DNA from: Candidatus Heimdallarchaeota archaeon
Lineage (GTDB): Archaea > Asgardarchaeota > Heimdallarchaeia > Heimdallarchaeales > Heimdallarchaeaceae
Assembly: GCA_016839945.1 (NCBI GenBank)
Contig: JAEOTE010000036.1
Span: 1 to 29,905, forward strand
Direction: 5' to 3'
DNA: 29,905 bases
In this document: piece by piece, positions 8,276 to 13,194 of the stretch
How positions within the stretch are numbered: position 1 is the first letter of the stretch
How the letters are laid out: the number at the start of each line of letters is the position of its first letter
The notes under the pieces: model-generated
What the model was told of the DNA's origin: nothing
The model's database searches: none
Seen by the model: the letters and a program-made list of their open reading frames with translations, nothing else
Program-made: the position numbers and the translations under genes

Positions 8276-8929
8276 TTATATTCTCTTCCTTTTTCGAATT
8301 ATAACAAAGATTGTAGTGGGTATAAATAATCCAAGAATTGCCCATAAGAAATCAAATGGAGCCTCTACTACATAACTTACAAATACTAGTTCCAGAATGC
8401 TAGTAAGATTAGCATTGTCTGTAAAATTTTCATAATATCTCTTTGTAATTCCATCTGCAGGATCTACTTCCATTTCAATGAAAAATGAATATTGATCTTG
8501 TGTAATTGTGAAATTCACATAGAAATTAGAAGCTGCATCTGTAACATTAAATAATTCAGGTTTGTCTTCAAAATCCTCTCTAATTGTTGTTTCAGTGCTT
8601 CCATTTATTTTTCTTATATGCCAAAAGAGAGGAAAACCTTCACCTGTATATTTTTTTCCATCAATGTTGATACTTGCATAGATTTTATTCAAATCTTCAT
8701 CTGTTAAAGGTCCAGGATACAAACTATCTTTCAGTTTAACTGTAAAATTTGCACCTTCCACAACATCAGTTTCATAGAAATTATCTGATTGATTAATTAA
8801 CCAAGTAAATGTTCCATTTTTAACCATTTTATCAGAATAATAGTATTGAACATCTTGTGCGATAGAAGGAGTACCAATAAATGCAAAAATTATTACAGCA
8901 ATTATGCTTATTTGAAGGAATTTTTTCAT
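8276..8929 (-). CDS. Secreted/surface protein with signal peptide and C-terminal TM anchor
   Basis: MKKFLQISIIAVIIFAFIGTPSIA signal; C-term EAPF + hydrophobic helix + RKRKRI; N-x-S/T sequons. Confidence 0.8.
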   Translation of the reverse strand: MKKFLQISIIAVIIFAFIGTPSIAQDVQYYYSDKMVKNGTFTWLINQSDNFYETDVVEGANFTVKLKDSLYPGPLTDEDLNKIYASINIDGKKYTGEGFPLFWHIRKINGSTETTIREDFEDKPELFNVTDAASNFYVNFTITQDQYSFFIEMEVDPADGITKRYYENFTDNANLTSILELVFVSYVVEAPFDFLWAILGLFIPTTIFVIIRKRKRI

Positions 8930-9058: not shown

Positions 9059-9301
9059 TTAAGATGATTTCCCTTTAACAGCTGTATTCCTAAAATTCTT
9101 TCTAAGATAACTAGGATCCTTACCTCTTTCAAATAATTCTTTTATTGAATCTCGTTTTTCTGGTTCACATTTAGGACAGTATGCGTTGCAATAAGATCCT
9201 GAAGTTACTGCTTCTTCAAAGAAATCGTGATTTGAGAAATAAGGAAAATCACATACCCACTCTTCATCGCACTGTTCACATTTATGTTTGCAAAATCCCA
9301 T
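9059..9301 (-). CDS. Small Cys-rich putative metal-binding protein (paralog of 23992-24231)
   Basis: CKHKCEQCDEEWVCDFPYFS...YCNAYCPKC; coding status supported by conserved paralog in the same window. Confidence 0.85.
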   Translation of the reverse strand: MGFCKHKCEQCDEEWVCDFPYFSNHDFFEEAVTSGSYCNAYCPKCEPEKRDSIKELFERGKDPSYLRKNFRNTAVKGKSS

Positions 9302-9454: not shown

Positions 9455-11044
9455 ATGAGATTTCTTCTTGTTTCAGATACTCATATTGGCGGAAGATTCG
9501 ATGAACTTATGTTTAATAAAGGAGTGGATATTTGTAATCATTTAGACGCTGATTATCTTGTTCACTGTGGTGATTTAACTAATGATGGTACTTTAGCTCA
9601 ATATGAAATTGCAAAACTTTATCTTGAAAAATTCAACAAAAATAAGAATCTTATAATCATTCCAGGAAATCATGATGTCAAAAATGTTGGTGATCTTTTA
9701 TGGGAAGAAATGATTGGCGAAAGATTTTTTTGTCATGAAGATGAAGTCAAAAAAGTAAAGATTCTTGCCTTGGATTCATCTGAACCTGATTCAGATACTG
9801 GAAGAATGGGTCCAAAAGGCATTCAAAGAATATATGATGAATTTGGTTCAATCCCAGAATACTGGTTGAAAGTATTGATTTTTCACCATCAAACTCTACC
9901 AATTCCATATACTGGAAGAGAGAGAAGCGCTATTTATGACGCAGGAGATGCAGTAAGAGCTATTCTTGATAATAATGTTCATCTAGTGTTAAATGGTCAT
10001 AGACACATAAGCAACTTTTATCGCATGTCAGATGGAGCTATGCAAGCTTGGATAGTAAACAGTGGGACATTGTCTTGTAAAAAGACTAGATATAGAGAAG
10101 AATATTCGATGATAGTAATAGATGTTGATCGAGAAAAAAATGATATATGTATTAGAGTTGTTTTACTCAATAAAGACCCCTATGAAGAACAAATAAAATG
10201 TCGTTGTAGATTTCAAGAAGTCATTCCTCCTATGAAGAAGGATCACTTAGCAACAATTGTTCAAATAGGAAATACTGATATCTGTGACACACATTTTAAT
10301 ACTGATTCTTTTAATAAAGGAGTAAAAGCAATAAATGATCTAAACTGTGATCTTGTTGTTCATTGTGGAGAAGTAACTGGCTCTGCATACTTACATGACT
10401 TTGAATGGTCAAAGGCACTATTGGAGCAAATTGATAAACCTAAATTAATAGTTCCAGGTGATGATGATGCTTATCCTCTAGGATATGAATTATTCCCCGA
10501 GTACATTGGAGATATGAATCCTACATTTAACAATGACGTATTGGATGTTTTAGGTTTCAATAGTTGTTTAATAGATGAAAAAACAGGAAGACTAGGAAGA
10601 GGAAATGTTGCTGAAATCGTTGATAAATTAACCAATTCAGAGAAACTTGGAGTTATTGCTTTTCATCATACTATAATTCCATTACCTAGAACAAAGCATG
10701 ATGCTGAATTAATGGATGCTGGCGATGTACTCTCAGCAATTGTAAAAAACAGAATCAACTTGGTTTTAACTGGAGCAAAAAATCAAGCAGGTTGCTGGCA
10801 AGTAAATGATACTGTTTTTGTAAATGCAGGAACCTTAAGCAGCTATAACATAACAAAACGAGAAGGAAATAGCTTCAATATAATTGATATTTATCAAACT
10901 AATATTGGTAAATACTATGAAATAGATGAATATCTTATTTCAAGTTTTAAAAGAAAGAATATAGGATTATTTCACGTATCTGATATAGCAAAACCTATTG
11001 AAGTTCCTCCTGTAATTGAATATTTACCAAGGAAACAAGTTTAA
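9455..11044 (+). CDS. Tandem calcineurin-like metallophosphoesterase (Icc/CpdA-like); second domain degenerate
   Basis: Domain 1: SDTH, GD, GNHD, HH, GHRH. Domain 2 equivalents: GNTD, GEV, GDDD, HH, GAKN. Likely start ATG 9455 (MRFLLVSDTH). Confidence 0.9.
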   Translation: MRFLLVSDTHIGGRFDELMFNKGVDICNHLDADYLVHCGDLTNDGTLAQYEIAKLYLEKFNKNKNLIIIPGNHDVKNVGDLLWEEMIGERFFCHEDEVKKVKILALDSSEPDSDTGRMGPKGIQRIYDEFGSIPEYWLKVLIFHHQTLPIPYTGRERSAIYDAGDAVRAILDNNVHLVLNGHRHISNFYRMSDGAMQAWIVNSGTLSCKKTRYREEYSMIVIDVDREKNDICIRVVLLNKDPYEEQIKCRCRFQEVIPPMKKDHLATIVQIGNTDICDTHFNTDSFNKGVKAINDLNCDLVVHCGEVTGSAYLHDFEWSKALLEQIDKPKLIVPGDDDAYPLGYELFPEYIGDMNPTFNNDVLDVLGFNSCLIDEKTGRLGRGNVAEIVDKLTNSEKLGVIAFHHTIIPLPRTKHDAELMDAGDVLSAIVKNRINLVLTGAKNQAGCWQVNDTVFVNAGTLSSYNITKREGNSFNIIDIYQTNIGKYYEIDEYLISSFKRKNIGLFHVSDIAKPIEVPPVIEYLPRKQV

Positions 11045-11138: not shown

Positions 11139-12422
11139 GTGACTACAAAAGTTCAAGGTCATGAAAAAGAAGATTCTTTTCCATTGAAAGTAAAGAATCT
11201 ATCTAAAGAAATGGGTTTGTGGATAGAGGAAGCTGAGAGAAGAATTTTCTCATTGGGTACAGGAGATAGAATCAGTCCTATAGCAGTAAAGATAATGCAA
11301 ATAGGTTTTAGTAAAATTCTTTATGCTGCAAATGAACTTGGAGCTGATTTAGAAGAATGTAAACCTTACATTGTTTTTGCTCCTGATTGTACTTGTACTT
11401 TTAATAAAATCAGAGTGGAAAGAGGATTTAGTTATGGAGCTTTAATTAAAGGGGATTTCTCTGGCATGATCTCAACTAGCAATGCGATGCCAAATGCTTG
11501 CGGATACACTATTGCTGAATTAACCACTCAAAGAACAGATGTTTCTTTAAAGAATCATCTAATTCAGAAACAAAAGGAGATTGGTAAAGATCACTTACAG
11601 CAATTAGGGAAAGGGAATCATTTTTCAGCCGTTTATTGTGTCAAGGATTCAATAACTGGGGAAGATACTATGCGAAGAATGATTAATGTTCACAGCAGCG
11701 GAAAATTAGGAACACAATTTCTTTATGATTTGAGTTGGTTAAGTGAGATAGAAGGATATCACAAAGTAGAGACACCTCATGGTCCAGTAGAATTACTGGA
11801 AGGAGAAGCTAAAAAACAATATTTAGATAAATACAATGAGGGTGATAAAACAAATGCTAACTATAGATTTGAGGTTTTGGGAGAGATACTAGGAGAAGGA
11901 ACTTTCAAGATTTTGGAAGAAATAACTCATCAAGGATTATCAAGAGATGGTAGATACCATAGATTAGGAGTTCAAGTTCATGATGGATTAATTCCAATTG
12001 CGTTTAATTCTGAAGAAGGTTTAATTCTTGCAGAAACAAAACCCAATCTCAGTAAAGAGCTCCTAGAAACATGGAAGTATAAAGAACAGGTAGAGGAGTT
12101 GGGTTTAGAAAAGGAACTATCACAAATAGATTTCTCTCCTCATGGAGGAGGATATGAATTTCTTTACCCAGTTGAAAAATTTACAATACACCTAGATAAA
12201 AGAGGTATAGGTTATCTTGAAGCAGAATTAAAGCCTGAAAAAAAACCAAAGATACAAAAGAAAGTTACTTATTTCCGAGAACTTAAAGAATACATGTGTT
12301 TCAGAAGAAAACTTCCTTTAATGAGAGAGGTTTTTAGAGCTGATTTAATTAAACACATCTACGATTTAGAACCTTTAATACAAATATACCCTCTAGTAAG
12401 TATAGTAGGTGGAACACTCTAA
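11139..12422 (+). CDS. Divergent RtcB-fold protein (RNA ligase/guanylyltransferase superfamily)
   Basis: Colinear RtcB-like motifs: PD...GFSYG, PNACG, LGKGNHF, VHSSG, THQ, HRLG, SPHGGG, C-terminal LEPL; start uncertain (GTG 11139 or TTG 11118). Confidence 0.75.
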   Translation: MTTKVQGHEKEDSFPLKVKNLSKEMGLWIEEAERRIFSLGTGDRISPIAVKIMQIGFSKILYAANELGADLEECKPYIVFAPDCTCTFNKIRVERGFSYGALIKGDFSGMISTSNAMPNACGYTIAELTTQRTDVSLKNHLIQKQKEIGKDHLQQLGKGNHFSAVYCVKDSITGEDTMRRMINVHSSGKLGTQFLYDLSWLSEIEGYHKVETPHGPVELLEGEAKKQYLDKYNEGDKTNANYRFEVLGEILGEGTFKILEEITHQGLSRDGRYHRLGVQVHDGLIPIAFNSEEGLILAETKPNLSKELLETWKYKEQVEELGLEKELSQIDFSPHGGGYEFLYPVEKFTIHLDKRGIGYLEAELKPEKKPKIQKKVTYFRELKEYMCFRRKLPLMREVFRADLIKHIYDLEPLIQIYPLVSIVGGTL

Positions 12423-12447: not shown

Positions 12448-13194
12448 GTGATGTTCTCCAGAAAGAATACATGGATAATAGCTCATAGAGGGGATTCTGG
12501 AAATTATCCCGAAAATTCTCTGAGAGCTTTTTGGTCAGCTATTGAATCGAAAGCTGATATAATAGAATTGGATTTGCAATTAACAGCTGATAACCATGTA
12601 GTTGTTTTTCATGATAAAACAATAGAAAGAGTCTTCCAGAGAGATGCAGACAAAACTATTAGAGATTTTAAGCTTAAAAAGCTCAAACAATGGGATATTG
12701 GCAGTTGGTTCAGTAAAGATTTTTCTGGTATGAAAATTCCTACTCTTGAAGAAGTGATTAATTCGTTACCAAAGTTCACCCCTCTGATTTTGGAATTGAA
12801 AAACAATGAAGACAAATTTACAATAAATGTCATTAATCAATTAGATGATTTGAATAAAGAATTAGGTATTGGATATATATCGGTAAGAAACACTGAAACA
12901 TACAAAAGAGCTAAAGATATAACTGATAAATACAAAATTGGTTTAATGCAAAAGAAGAGAACACCAAGAGAAACACTTGATATTATAACGAGAGAAGAAA
13001 TAGAAATTCTTCAGATTCGTTGGAGGGAATGGACTAGTGAAGAATGGGATGTTCTTTTAGAAACAGATACAATCATAACTGCATTTTTTGCAGACGAAAT
13101 TGAGGATTTTCAATTTTTAGTTTCTAAGAAAATAAATGGAATACTAACAAATTATCCTGCTAGACTTGCACAGTTTTTAAAAAGAAATATATAG
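12448..13194 (+). CDS. Glycerophosphodiester phosphodiesterase (GDPD/UgpQ family)
   Basis: IAHRG.SG.YPENSL.AF, IELDLQLTAD...VVFHD, IPTLEE, LELK, GILTNYP. Confidence 0.93.
   Translation: MMFSRKNTWIIAHRGDSGNYPENSLRAFWSAIESKADIIELDLQLTADNHVVVFHDKTIERVFQRDADKTIRDFKLKKLKQWDIGSWFSKDFSGMKIPTLEEVINSLPKFTPLILELKNNEDKFTINVINQLDDLNKELGIGYISVRNTETYKRAKDITDKYKIGLMQKKRTPRETLDIITREEIEILQIRWREWTSEEWDVLLETDTIITAFFADEIEDFQFLVSKKINGILTNYPARLAQFLKRNI

Follow-up and report, generated by a model that had tools for sequence, protein, structure and literature searches.

RtcB is known only as a nucleic-acid end-joining enzyme, with a fold and mechanism of its own. The 3'-phosphate/5'-OH RNA ligase (Pfam PF01139), represented by Pyrococcus horikoshii PH1602 (1UC2/4DWQ), Thermus thermophilus TTHA1785 (2EPG), and human RTCB (7P3B), uses Cys98, His234, and His329 to bind one metal ion and Asp95, Cys98, and His203 to bind a second, and His404 is the nucleophile that forms the His-GMP intermediate (PMC9745838). 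Only two base-specific contacts to guanine are made, by Glu206 (N1/N2) and Lys480 (O6) (PMC9745838), whereas Asn202, Arg190, Gln194, and Arg238 engage the 5'-OH strand, with Asn202 positioning the 5'-OH nucleophile (PMC8051266). A precedent for RtcB paralogs in one genome that take on different substrates or stop at a capping step is provided by Myxococcus xanthus RtcB1-3, of which RtcB3 caps 5'-phosphate ends, and by the ribosome repair system RtcB2-PrfH of Escherichia coli (PMC10630183; PMC9304027). Those paralogs are named RtcB and are reported to act on RNA or DNA ends with GTP. Here, we describe an Asgard archaeal protein that is predicted to share the RtcB fold but lies outside PF01139 and has lost the mapped guanine and RNA-strand determinants.

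The gene lies in a window of 29,905 nucleotides (the whole stretch of DNA that was analyzed) from Candidatus Heimdallarchaeota archaeon (assembly GCA_016839945.1, contig JAEOTE010000036.1, positions 1 to 29,905 of the forward strand), and its features are collected in Table 1. The GTG start matches the N termini of homologs that are 86-89% identical. We identified 72 close homologs, nearly all of them Heimdallarchaeota/Kariarchaeaceae proteins annotated as 'hypothetical protein,' although one NCBI record of a 47%-identical homolog is named 'RtcB family protein.' Our literature searches found no description of the family.

Table 1. Positions, within the 29,905-nucleotide window, of the RtcB-like gene, its motifs, and neighboring genes. 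Percentages give conservation among 168 relatives.
Positions	Strand	Feature	RtcB equivalent or family match	Remarks
8276..8929	-	217-aa ORF		Looks from its sequence like a secreted or membrane protein, not an HD protein
9455..11044	+	Tandem metallophosphoesterase (MPE2), 529 aa from ATG 9455	Pfam Metallophos, E 3.6e-19	N-terminal domain has all calcineurin-type motifs; C-terminal domain degenerate (GNHD to GDDD, GHxH to GAKN)
11139..12422	+	RtcB-like gene, 427 aa	RtcB fold (predicted)	GTG start at 11139; TAA stop at 12420-12422
11385..11387	+	Asp83 of the PD motif	P. horikoshii RtcB Asp65	93%; the following His67 position is Thr85
11493..11501	+	Asn119-Ala120-Cys121	Cys121: bridging metal ligand Cys98	Cys121 97%; Asn119 (Cys minus 2) 92%; Pro at Cys minus 3, 88%; Asp95 missing
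11616..11630	+	Asn160-His161-Phe162-Ser163-Ala164	N202/H203/F204; Ala164 at the Glu206 position	Asn 99%, His 100%, Phe 99%; family consensus Gly at the Glu206 position
11691..11705	+	His185 to Lys189	His185: metal-1 ligand His234; Lys189 at the Arg238 position	His185 100%; family consensus His at the Arg238 position
11928..11933	+	His264-Gln265	His329/Asn330 (metal-1 ligand and phosphate contact)	His264 100%
12138..12158	+	Pro334-His335-Gly-Gly-Gly-Tyr339-Glu340	His335: nucleophile His404; Arg408 replaced by an invariant Tyr followed by Glu	His335 (codon 12141-12143) 100%; Pro334 99%; Gly336 97%; Gly338 98%
12448..13194	+	Glycerophosphodiester phosphodiesterase (GDPD) family gene, 248 aa	Pfam GDPD, E 1.1e-29; PDB 2pz0, E 2.4e-25	Starts 25 bp after the RtcB-like stop

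Despite its resemblance to RtcB in motif order, the protein is barely recognizable by single-sequence searches. The Pfam RtcB model scores only 11.1 bits (E 0.23, over one 42-residue stretch) against a gathering threshold of 27 bits, and only 6 of 51 family members reach E <= 1 (best 1.8e-4). No NCBIfam model matches, and a phmmer search of PDB sequences returned only a chance gasdermin hit. A profile built from 43 homologs places RtcB chains in all four top positions among PDB sequences, aligning GNHF with N202/H203 and VH with H234, but at a non-significant E of 0.14. To determine whether the relationship could be established more firmly, we used hhalign to compare a 168-sequence alignment of the family with 31 canonical Asgard RtcBs and obtained a probability of 91.6% and an E of 8.3e-7 over 352 columns. 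Global mode failed completely and the 43-sequence alignment mis-paired the THQ and AHN region; only the 168-sequence alignment gave a full-length pairing. In it, PD aligns with P64-D65, GFSYG with GFPIG, NHF with N202-H203-F204, THQ with AHN, HRLG with HRKG, and PHGGGY with HGAGR. These results reproduce nearly every pairing in the original prediction, which had aligned the protein to RtcB motifs by eye.

We next generated an AlphaFold2 model, which is confident (pLDDT 89, pTM 0.89). The model matches only RtcB structures: the top 16 Foldseek hits are all RtcB, with E down to 2.5e-8, and VIA-align yields Z scores of 18.2-20.8 to ten RtcB structures, with 291-323 residues aligned at an rmsd of 3.4-4.2 Å, whereas the next unrelated chain scores Z 4.8. 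This correspondence is far beyond chance, although sequence identity is only 10-14%. The protein is about 55-60 residues shorter than canonical RtcB, with a deletion of about 65 residues between the positions of Cys98 and Asn202.

The residues retained are those of the RtcB catalytic core. The metal-1 site is complete (Cys121, His185, and His264), two of the three metal-2 ligands are kept (Cys121 and His161), and both the phosphate-contacting Asn160 and the nucleophile His335 are present. The four histidines are invariant across 168 relatives reaching down to about 25% identity, as well as in another alignment (A3), indicating purifying selection on exactly the catalytic set defined in PMC9745838. 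The third metal-2 ligand, Asp95, is missing from the M-P-N-A-C loop, although the exact register at this position (M117, P118, or N119) is of low confidence. Both guanine-specific contacts are lost, as Glu206 is replaced and the C-terminal KG that carries Lys480 is absent, the protein ending in ...IYPLVSIVGGTL. Of the mapped 5'-OH-strand contacts, only the Asn is kept, with Arg190 becoming Ile148, Gln194 becoming His152, and Arg238 also replaced. Lys351 and Arg408, which probably contact RNA or phosphate, are replaced as well, as is the guanosine-binding PGSMG loop. However, the family has gained conserved basic and polar residues of its own (Asn89, Arg92, Arg243, and Arg389), so phosphate binding is rewired rather than simply lost, although the positions of these residues relative to the active site are unknown. 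The protein is acidic (pI 6.3), with values of 5.3-6.3 in this protein and four relatives checked (one distant relative, designated P0085, is 9.3), against 9.0 for the canonical RtcB of the same genome.

The original prediction had proposed that retention of the metal ligands and the nucleophilic His, together with loss of basic phosphate/RNA contacts, suggests an active nucleotidyltransferase with a different nucleotide or acceptor. Our analyses support this interpretation, as both computational tests that could have refuted it, the structural match and the conservation of GNHF and the HGGG histidine, failed to do so, although activity, nucleotide, and acceptor remain inferences. We consider it very unlikely that the protein is an ordinary RtcB that appears odd because Asgard sequences are divergent, or an inactive pseudoenzyme or regulatory subunit, even though the predicted fold is that of RtcB. 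The same genome encodes a textbook RtcB with every canonical motif (546.6 bits), which rules out lineage-wide divergence as the cause, and a canonical RtcB is present in 41 of 41 Asgard genomes sampled; the gene is thus an addition rather than a replacement. Strict conservation of the metal ligands and nucleophile over a family reaching Altiarchaeales, Geothermarchaeales, and bacteria argues against a dead enzyme.

To gain insights into function, we examined the genomic context of related loci. The flanking MPE2 shows weak PDB and NCBIfam similarity to the Rv0805, Icc, GpdQ, CpdA, and YfcE phosphodiesterases. GDPD is adjacent to the RtcB-like gene in about 24 of 34 related loci and MPE2 in about 19 of 34, in several gene orders and orientations, and the setting is a phosphodiesterase module rather than one with RtcA or Archease. 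Among 31 genomes of the same taxonomic family, the RtcB-like gene and the GDPD ortholog occur in the same 13, and the MPE2 ortholog (>=62% identity) occurs in 12 of those, the 13th locus stopping at a contig end; the other 18 genomes lack all three. In a more distant Asgard subfamily, an HD phosphohydrolase gene lies immediately upstream in 8 of 20 loci, with GDPD or MPE2 one gene further in 4, and an HD gene is found again in a Prometheoarchaeum-type bin. We looked for an HD partner in the present window and found none. An apparent fourth conserved neighbor (cluster c3) proved to be unrelated ABC ATPases grouped by their P-loop, an AUR1-like gene did not appear among the recurrent neighbor clusters in the 21 loci compared, although it was not searched for directly, and PADLOC gave no defense-system match for the RtcB-like protein or the GDPD.

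Because the conserved partners are all hydrolytic phosphoesterases, the protein could itself be a hydrolase, namely a metal-dependent (cyclic) phosphodiesterase or phosphatase that reuses the RtcB site, by analogy with the 2',3'-cyclic phosphodiesterase step of RtcB, within a catabolic cluster that scavenges glycerophosphodiesters or cyclic phosphates. The presence of DegV fatty-acid-binding genes within the cluster in two lineages fits lipid scavenging, and the altered metal-2 site and lost nucleotide-base contacts are also compatible with this view. We nevertheless regard it as unlikely, as the nucleophilic His in the P-H-G-x-G loop is invariant, as are all other nucleotidylation residues, and this is not required for simple metal-activated hydrolysis. 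Moreover, one relative (P0113/P0236) fuses an APH/choline-kinase-type small-molecule kinase (PF01636, E 3e-20) to the RtcB-like domain, suggesting use of a phosphomonoester rather than its production. The fusion lies in a biosynthetic operon with two radical-SAM enzymes, an ATP-grasp enzyme, a HisC/CobD-type PLP enzyme (a group that acts on phosphorylated substrates), an SDR, two HAD phosphatases, and a GT4 glycosyltransferase. It was found in a search of representative sequences, whereas a search for longer (fused) relatives in a set of 5.8 billion proteins found none. The fusion comes from one metagenomic lineage and a distant subfamily and so may not transfer to this gene; the loop that replaces PGSMG also differs between the two subfamilies, so they may have different substrates.

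A second alternative, which we consider less likely than a small-molecule role but not negligible, is a non-canonical nucleic-acid end enzyme that seals or caps RNA or DNA 3'-phosphate ends, or cyclizes short oligonucleotides, using its own new binding residues. In this case, the MPE, GDPD, or HD partners would act as end-healing or de-capping phosphoesterases in a heal-and-seal or signal make-and-break module, consistent with the RNA-end phosphatase roles of MPE and HD domains in Pnkp and HD-Pnk systems (PMC1920235). The retained catalytic set and the conserved Asn202 equivalent fit this view. In addition, one bacterial relative lies next to (convergent with) canonical RtcB plus Archease, one Altiarchaeal relative lies between a Trm61-like tRNA methyltransferase gene and an AP_endonuc_2 gene, and a metallo-beta-lactamase of the RMMBL/Apyc1 type is a neighbor in one case (L111), although neighborhoods outside Asgard rest on a few single look-ups. 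Conversely, the mapped 5'-OH-strand contacts and Arg408, which may serve the 3' strand, are replaced, the roughly 65-residue segment just upstream of Arg190 and Gln194 is deleted, and the protein is acidic. GDPD enzymes are not known to act on nucleic acids, the kinase fused to a relative is of the small-molecule rather than the polynucleotide-kinase type, and RtcB needs 3'-phosphate ends, which healing phosphatases would destroy.

Overall, we favor, with a probability of about 0.5, the interpretation that the gene encodes a catalytically competent but deeply diverged RtcB-fold enzyme that activates or joins non-RNA phosphate esters. In the inferred mechanism, His335, with Mn2+ or a similar metal, attacks the alpha-phosphate of a nucleotide, not necessarily GTP, to form a covalent enzyme-His-NMP. 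The NMP is then passed to a phosphomonoester that is not an RNA 3' end, most likely a small molecule, giving an NDP-activated ester that may be attacked by a hydroxyl to form a phosphodiester. No biochemical data exist, the nucleotide, metal, and acceptor are all inferred, and loss of Asp95 could weaken metal-2 binding and the nucleotidylation step. The co-inherited GDPD and MPE2 would either supply the phosphomonoester or alcohol by cleaving phosphodiesters or hydrolyze the product, and in other Asgard lineages a YedJ/YpgQ-like HD phosphohydrolase takes that place. In this view, the three genes act as one accessory phosphoester make-and-break module alongside the ordinary tRNA-splicing RtcB. 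The proposed chemistry is analogous in mechanism, but not in fold, to that of CobU, an adenosylcobinamide kinase/guanylyltransferase with a His-GMP intermediate, and to the choline or ethanolamine kinase and cytidylyltransferase pairing of the Kennedy pathway, although there is as yet no evidence that the RtcB-like family carries out this reaction. A bolder possibility, which we advance only tentatively and consider more doubtful than not, is that RtcB chemistry has been repurposed in Asgard archaea for small molecules, making NDP-activated phosphoesters or glycerophosphodiester-type bonds as a route to activated head groups, solutes, or cofactor precursors unrelated to the classical cytidylyltransferase route, with the GDPD, metallophosphoesterase, or HD partners running the reverse direction.

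The protein belongs to a large, unnamed sister family of RtcB, with matches in 225 of 400 Asgard genomes searched and also in Altiarchaeales, Geothermarchaeales, and some bacteria. If it acts on non-nucleic-acid phosphates, that would be a new enzyme activity for this fold, and it would also be a new step in phosphoester metabolism, possibly of lipid head groups or solutes, in the closest archaeal relatives of eukaryotes.

The window is AT-rich (≈31% G+C), and although a listing of its open reading frames gives a 468-codon frame from a TTG codon, the GTG start proposed in the original prediction is the better one. This start gives a 427-aa product whose N terminus lines up with the starts of homologs of 86-89% identity. 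Homologs with a source name are almost all from Heimdallarchaeota/Kariarchaeaceae genomes assembled from metagenomes and are labeled "hypothetical protein"; one is named "RtcB family protein."

Coordinates of the features discussed in the text. Positions without a prefix are those of the window; G, C, and L designate the genomes, contigs, and loci used in our comparisons.
Feature	Coordinates	Strand	Description
217-aa ORF	8276-8929	-	no Pfam match
80-aa ORF	9059-9301	-	Cys-rich
Tandem metallophosphoesterase	9455-11044	+	94 bp before the RtcB-like gene
RtcB-like gene, alternative start	11016	+	TTG, 468-codon frame
RtcB-like gene, preferred start	11139	+	GTG, 427 aa
RtcB-like gene, His335 codon	12141-12143	+	equivalent of the His404 nucleophile
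RtcB-like gene, stop	12420-12422	+	TAA
GDPD gene	12448-13194	+	25 bp after the RtcB-like gene
Canonical RtcB of this genome (locus L001)	G000:C152:13447-14775		uninterrupted
RtcB with split match	G015:C1:1558351-1561179
RtcB with split match	G011:C38:129362-132214
RtcB with split match	G302:C16:2586-5357
RtcB-like orthologue, locus L021	G021:C36:56625-57896		single in-frame stop
RtcB-like orthologue, locus L030	G043:C80:29046-30272		single in-frame stop

To determine whether the protein is RtcB-like, we first examined its sequence. Alone, the sequence barely touches Pfam RtcB (11 bits, E 0.23, against a cut-off of 27), and it matches no NCBIfam model. A profile of 43 homologs places RtcB chains in all four top positions of a PDB sequence search and aligns GNHF with N202/H203 and VH with H234, albeit at a nonsignificant E of 0.14. 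The structural evidence, however, is decisive. The AlphaFold2 model built on that alignment is confident (pLDDT 89.1, pTM 0.89), and Foldseek returns RtcB in its top 16 places, with E down to 2.5e-8. Structural alignment with VIA-align gives Z 18.2-20.8 over 291-323 residues at an rmsd of 3.4-4.2 Å for ten RtcB entries, whereas the best unrelated chain scores Z 4.8. We then enlarged the family through an exhaustive search of representative sequences (264 representatives at E <= 1e-3). An hhalign comparison of 168 family members against 31 canonical Asgard RtcBs gave a probability of 91.6% and E 8.3e-7 across nearly the whole length.

To map individual residues, we numbered Pyrococcus horikoshii RtcB from the alignment of the genome's own RtcB to 7LFQ/1UC2 and took residue roles from PMC9745838 and PMC8051266.

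Residue correspondence between P. horikoshii (Pho) RtcB and the RtcB-like protein, with conservation in the family.
Pho RtcB residue	Role	This protein	Conservation in family
Asp65	PD motif	Asp83	93%
Cys98	bridges both metals	Cys121	97%
Asn202, His203, Phe204	phosphate and 5'-OH contact; metal 2	Asn160, His161, Phe162	99%, 100%, 99%
His234	metal 1	His185	100%
His329	metal 1	His264	100%
His404	nucleophile	His335	100%
His67	PDxH motif	Thr85	replaced
Asp95	metal 2	none (loop M-P-N-A-C, conserved Asn119)	replaced
Glu206	guanine N1/N2	Ala164 (Gly in consensus)	replaced
Arg190, Gln194	5'-OH strand	Ile148, His152	replaced
Arg238	5'-OH strand	Lys189 (His in consensus)	replaced
Asn330	gamma-phosphate	Gln265	replaced
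Lys351	HRKG motif	Leu276	replaced
PGSMG loop	guanosine pocket	P-I-A-F-N-S-E-E-G	replaced
Arg408	probable phosphate contact	Tyr339, then invariant Glu340	replaced
Lys480	guanine O6	absent	lost

In addition to these replacements, ≈65 residues between the Cys and GNHF motifs are deleted, and the register at the Asp95 position is uncertain. The family has also gained conserved residues of its own, namely Asn89 and Arg92 in an insert after the PD motif, and Arg389. Although Arg243 is conserved as well, it aligns with the Arg of the canonical ANRQ motif and is therefore shared with RtcB rather than gained. The by-eye alignment to RtcB motifs in the original prediction was therefore essentially correct, but the loss of basic contacts that it proposed is better described as a rewiring.

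The reading of this protein as an ordinary RtcB is very unlikely, as is that of a dead enzyme. The same genome carries a textbook RtcB on another contig (546.6 bits, with every canonical motif), and canonical RtcB was found in 41 of 41 Asgard genomes sampled. The RtcB-like proteins are mostly acidic (pI 5.3-6.3 in five of six checked; one distant relative, designated P0085, is 9.3), against 9.0 for the canonical paralogue. In three other Asgard genomes, the RtcB match is split (model positions 1-50 and 44/49-426) inside one open frame of 993-1015 aa, a pattern that suggests an intein after the N-terminal 50 residues, as in P. horikoshii PH1602.

The family profile matches 225 of 400 genomes of the phylum. 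A close subfamily (450-680 bits) is found in the organism's own order and class, and a distant subfamily (≈170-225 bits) is found in many other Asgard families, for example in 127 of 135 genomes in one; some genomes hold both. Relatives also occur in Altiarchaeales, Geothermarchaeales, and a genome labeled Anaerolineae, and Atlas clusters are "hypothetical protein" from Altarchaeota, Promethearchaeota, and Myxococcota. Two orthologues of the RtcB-like gene carry a single in-frame stop (one TGA, one TAG) within an otherwise full-length match, for which sequencing error, recent inactivation, or recoding are possible causes.

To gain insights into function, we compared gene neighborhoods. In the close subfamily, GDPD is adjacent in ≈24 of 34 related loci and the tandem metallophosphoesterase in ≈19, even with only 1.5-kb flanks. 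Several gene orders and orientations occur, which argues for selection rather than inherited synteny alone. Among the 31 genomes of the organism's own taxonomic family, the RtcB-like gene and the GDPD orthologue are present in exactly the same 13 genomes. The orthologous metallophosphoesterase (>=62% identity) is in 12 of those, and in the 13th the locus runs off a contig end; the other 18 genomes lack all three. In the window, this metallophosphoesterase has an intact N-terminal domain (DTH, GD, GNHD, HH, GHRH), but its C-terminal domain is degenerate, with GNHD changed to GDDD and GHxH changed to GAKN, so that domain is probably noncatalytic. A second metallophosphoesterase paralogue of ≈33% identity and the same tandem length is found in 29 of the 31 genomes. 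A DegV (fatty-acid-binding) gene sits next to the RtcB-like gene, or between it and GDPD, in two lineages (loci L002, L003, L004, L026, and L100), a possible lipid link. Upstream and divergent from the module lie the 217-aa ORF, whose sequence looks like it has an N-terminal signal and a C-terminal membrane anchor, and the 80-aa ORF. The 217-aa, 309-aa, 123-aa, and MgtE-like genes upstream are syntenic in a congeneric genome (locus L099).

In the distant subfamily, a YedJ/YpgQ-like HD phosphohydrolase lies immediately upstream in 8 of 20 loci, with GDPD (3 loci) or the tandem metallophosphoesterase (1 locus) one gene beyond it. The HD pairing appears again in a Prometheoarchaeum-type bin, next to a metallo-beta-lactamase-fold gene. 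Other contexts are uninformative or point elsewhere, and include MetRS, hypusine genes, and metal transporters. In some lineages (loci L090 and L092, G069:C66 and G070:C3; L085, G303:C1), the RtcB-like gene follows an ABC-3 type metal (Mn/Zn) ABC transporter operon, or a VIT1-family Fe/Mn transporter gene, which weakly fits a transition-metal requirement; in L090 and L092, a thymidine/AMP-phosphorylase-like gene follows it. In an Altiarchaeon, the neighbors are a tRNA methyltransferase and an AP_endonuc_2 gene. The bacterial member (NCBI label Anaerolineae; locus L108, JGI 3300009529, contig Ga0114919_10001420) lies tail-to-tail with a canonical RtcB-Archease pair, beside the infB-rbfA-truB-ribF region. 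A noncanonical nucleic-acid end enzyme is possible, although we consider this reading rather unlikely, and a pure hydrolase is less likely still.

A domain fusion offers a further indication of function. Two metagenomic proteins of 743-748 aa join an N-terminal APH/choline-kinase-type small-molecule kinase (PF01636, E 3e-20) to a C-terminal RtcB-like domain that keeps all four histidines. The fusion lies in an operon with two HydE/PylB-like radical-SAM enzymes, an ATP-grasp enzyme, a HisC/CobD-type PLP enzyme, an SDR, two HAD phosphatases, and a GT4 glycosyltransferase. A kinase makes a phosphomonoester, and the second step of RtcB transfers NMP to a phosphomonoester. The fusion is therefore the best available hint that the acceptor of the family is a small phosphorylated molecule, although it represents one lineage and a distant subfamily and is thus a lead rather than proof.

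Overall, the protein combines the RtcB fold and selective retention of the catalytic set with loss of the guanine and mapped RNA-strand determinants, coexistence with canonical RtcB, and co-inheritance with two phosphodiesterase genes. Our favored interpretation, to which we assign a probability of ≈0.5, is that the enzyme still forms a His335-NMP adduct with a transition metal and passes the NMP to a non-RNA phosphate. The inferred product is an NDP-ester, possibly resolved to a phosphodiester, and the partner phosphodiesterases would feed or reverse this reaction. The guanosine-pocket replacement differs between the two subfamilies, so their substrates may differ too. Full-text literature searches found no description of this family or module, and we regard it as an undescribed, probably re-targeted branch of the RtcB superfamily.
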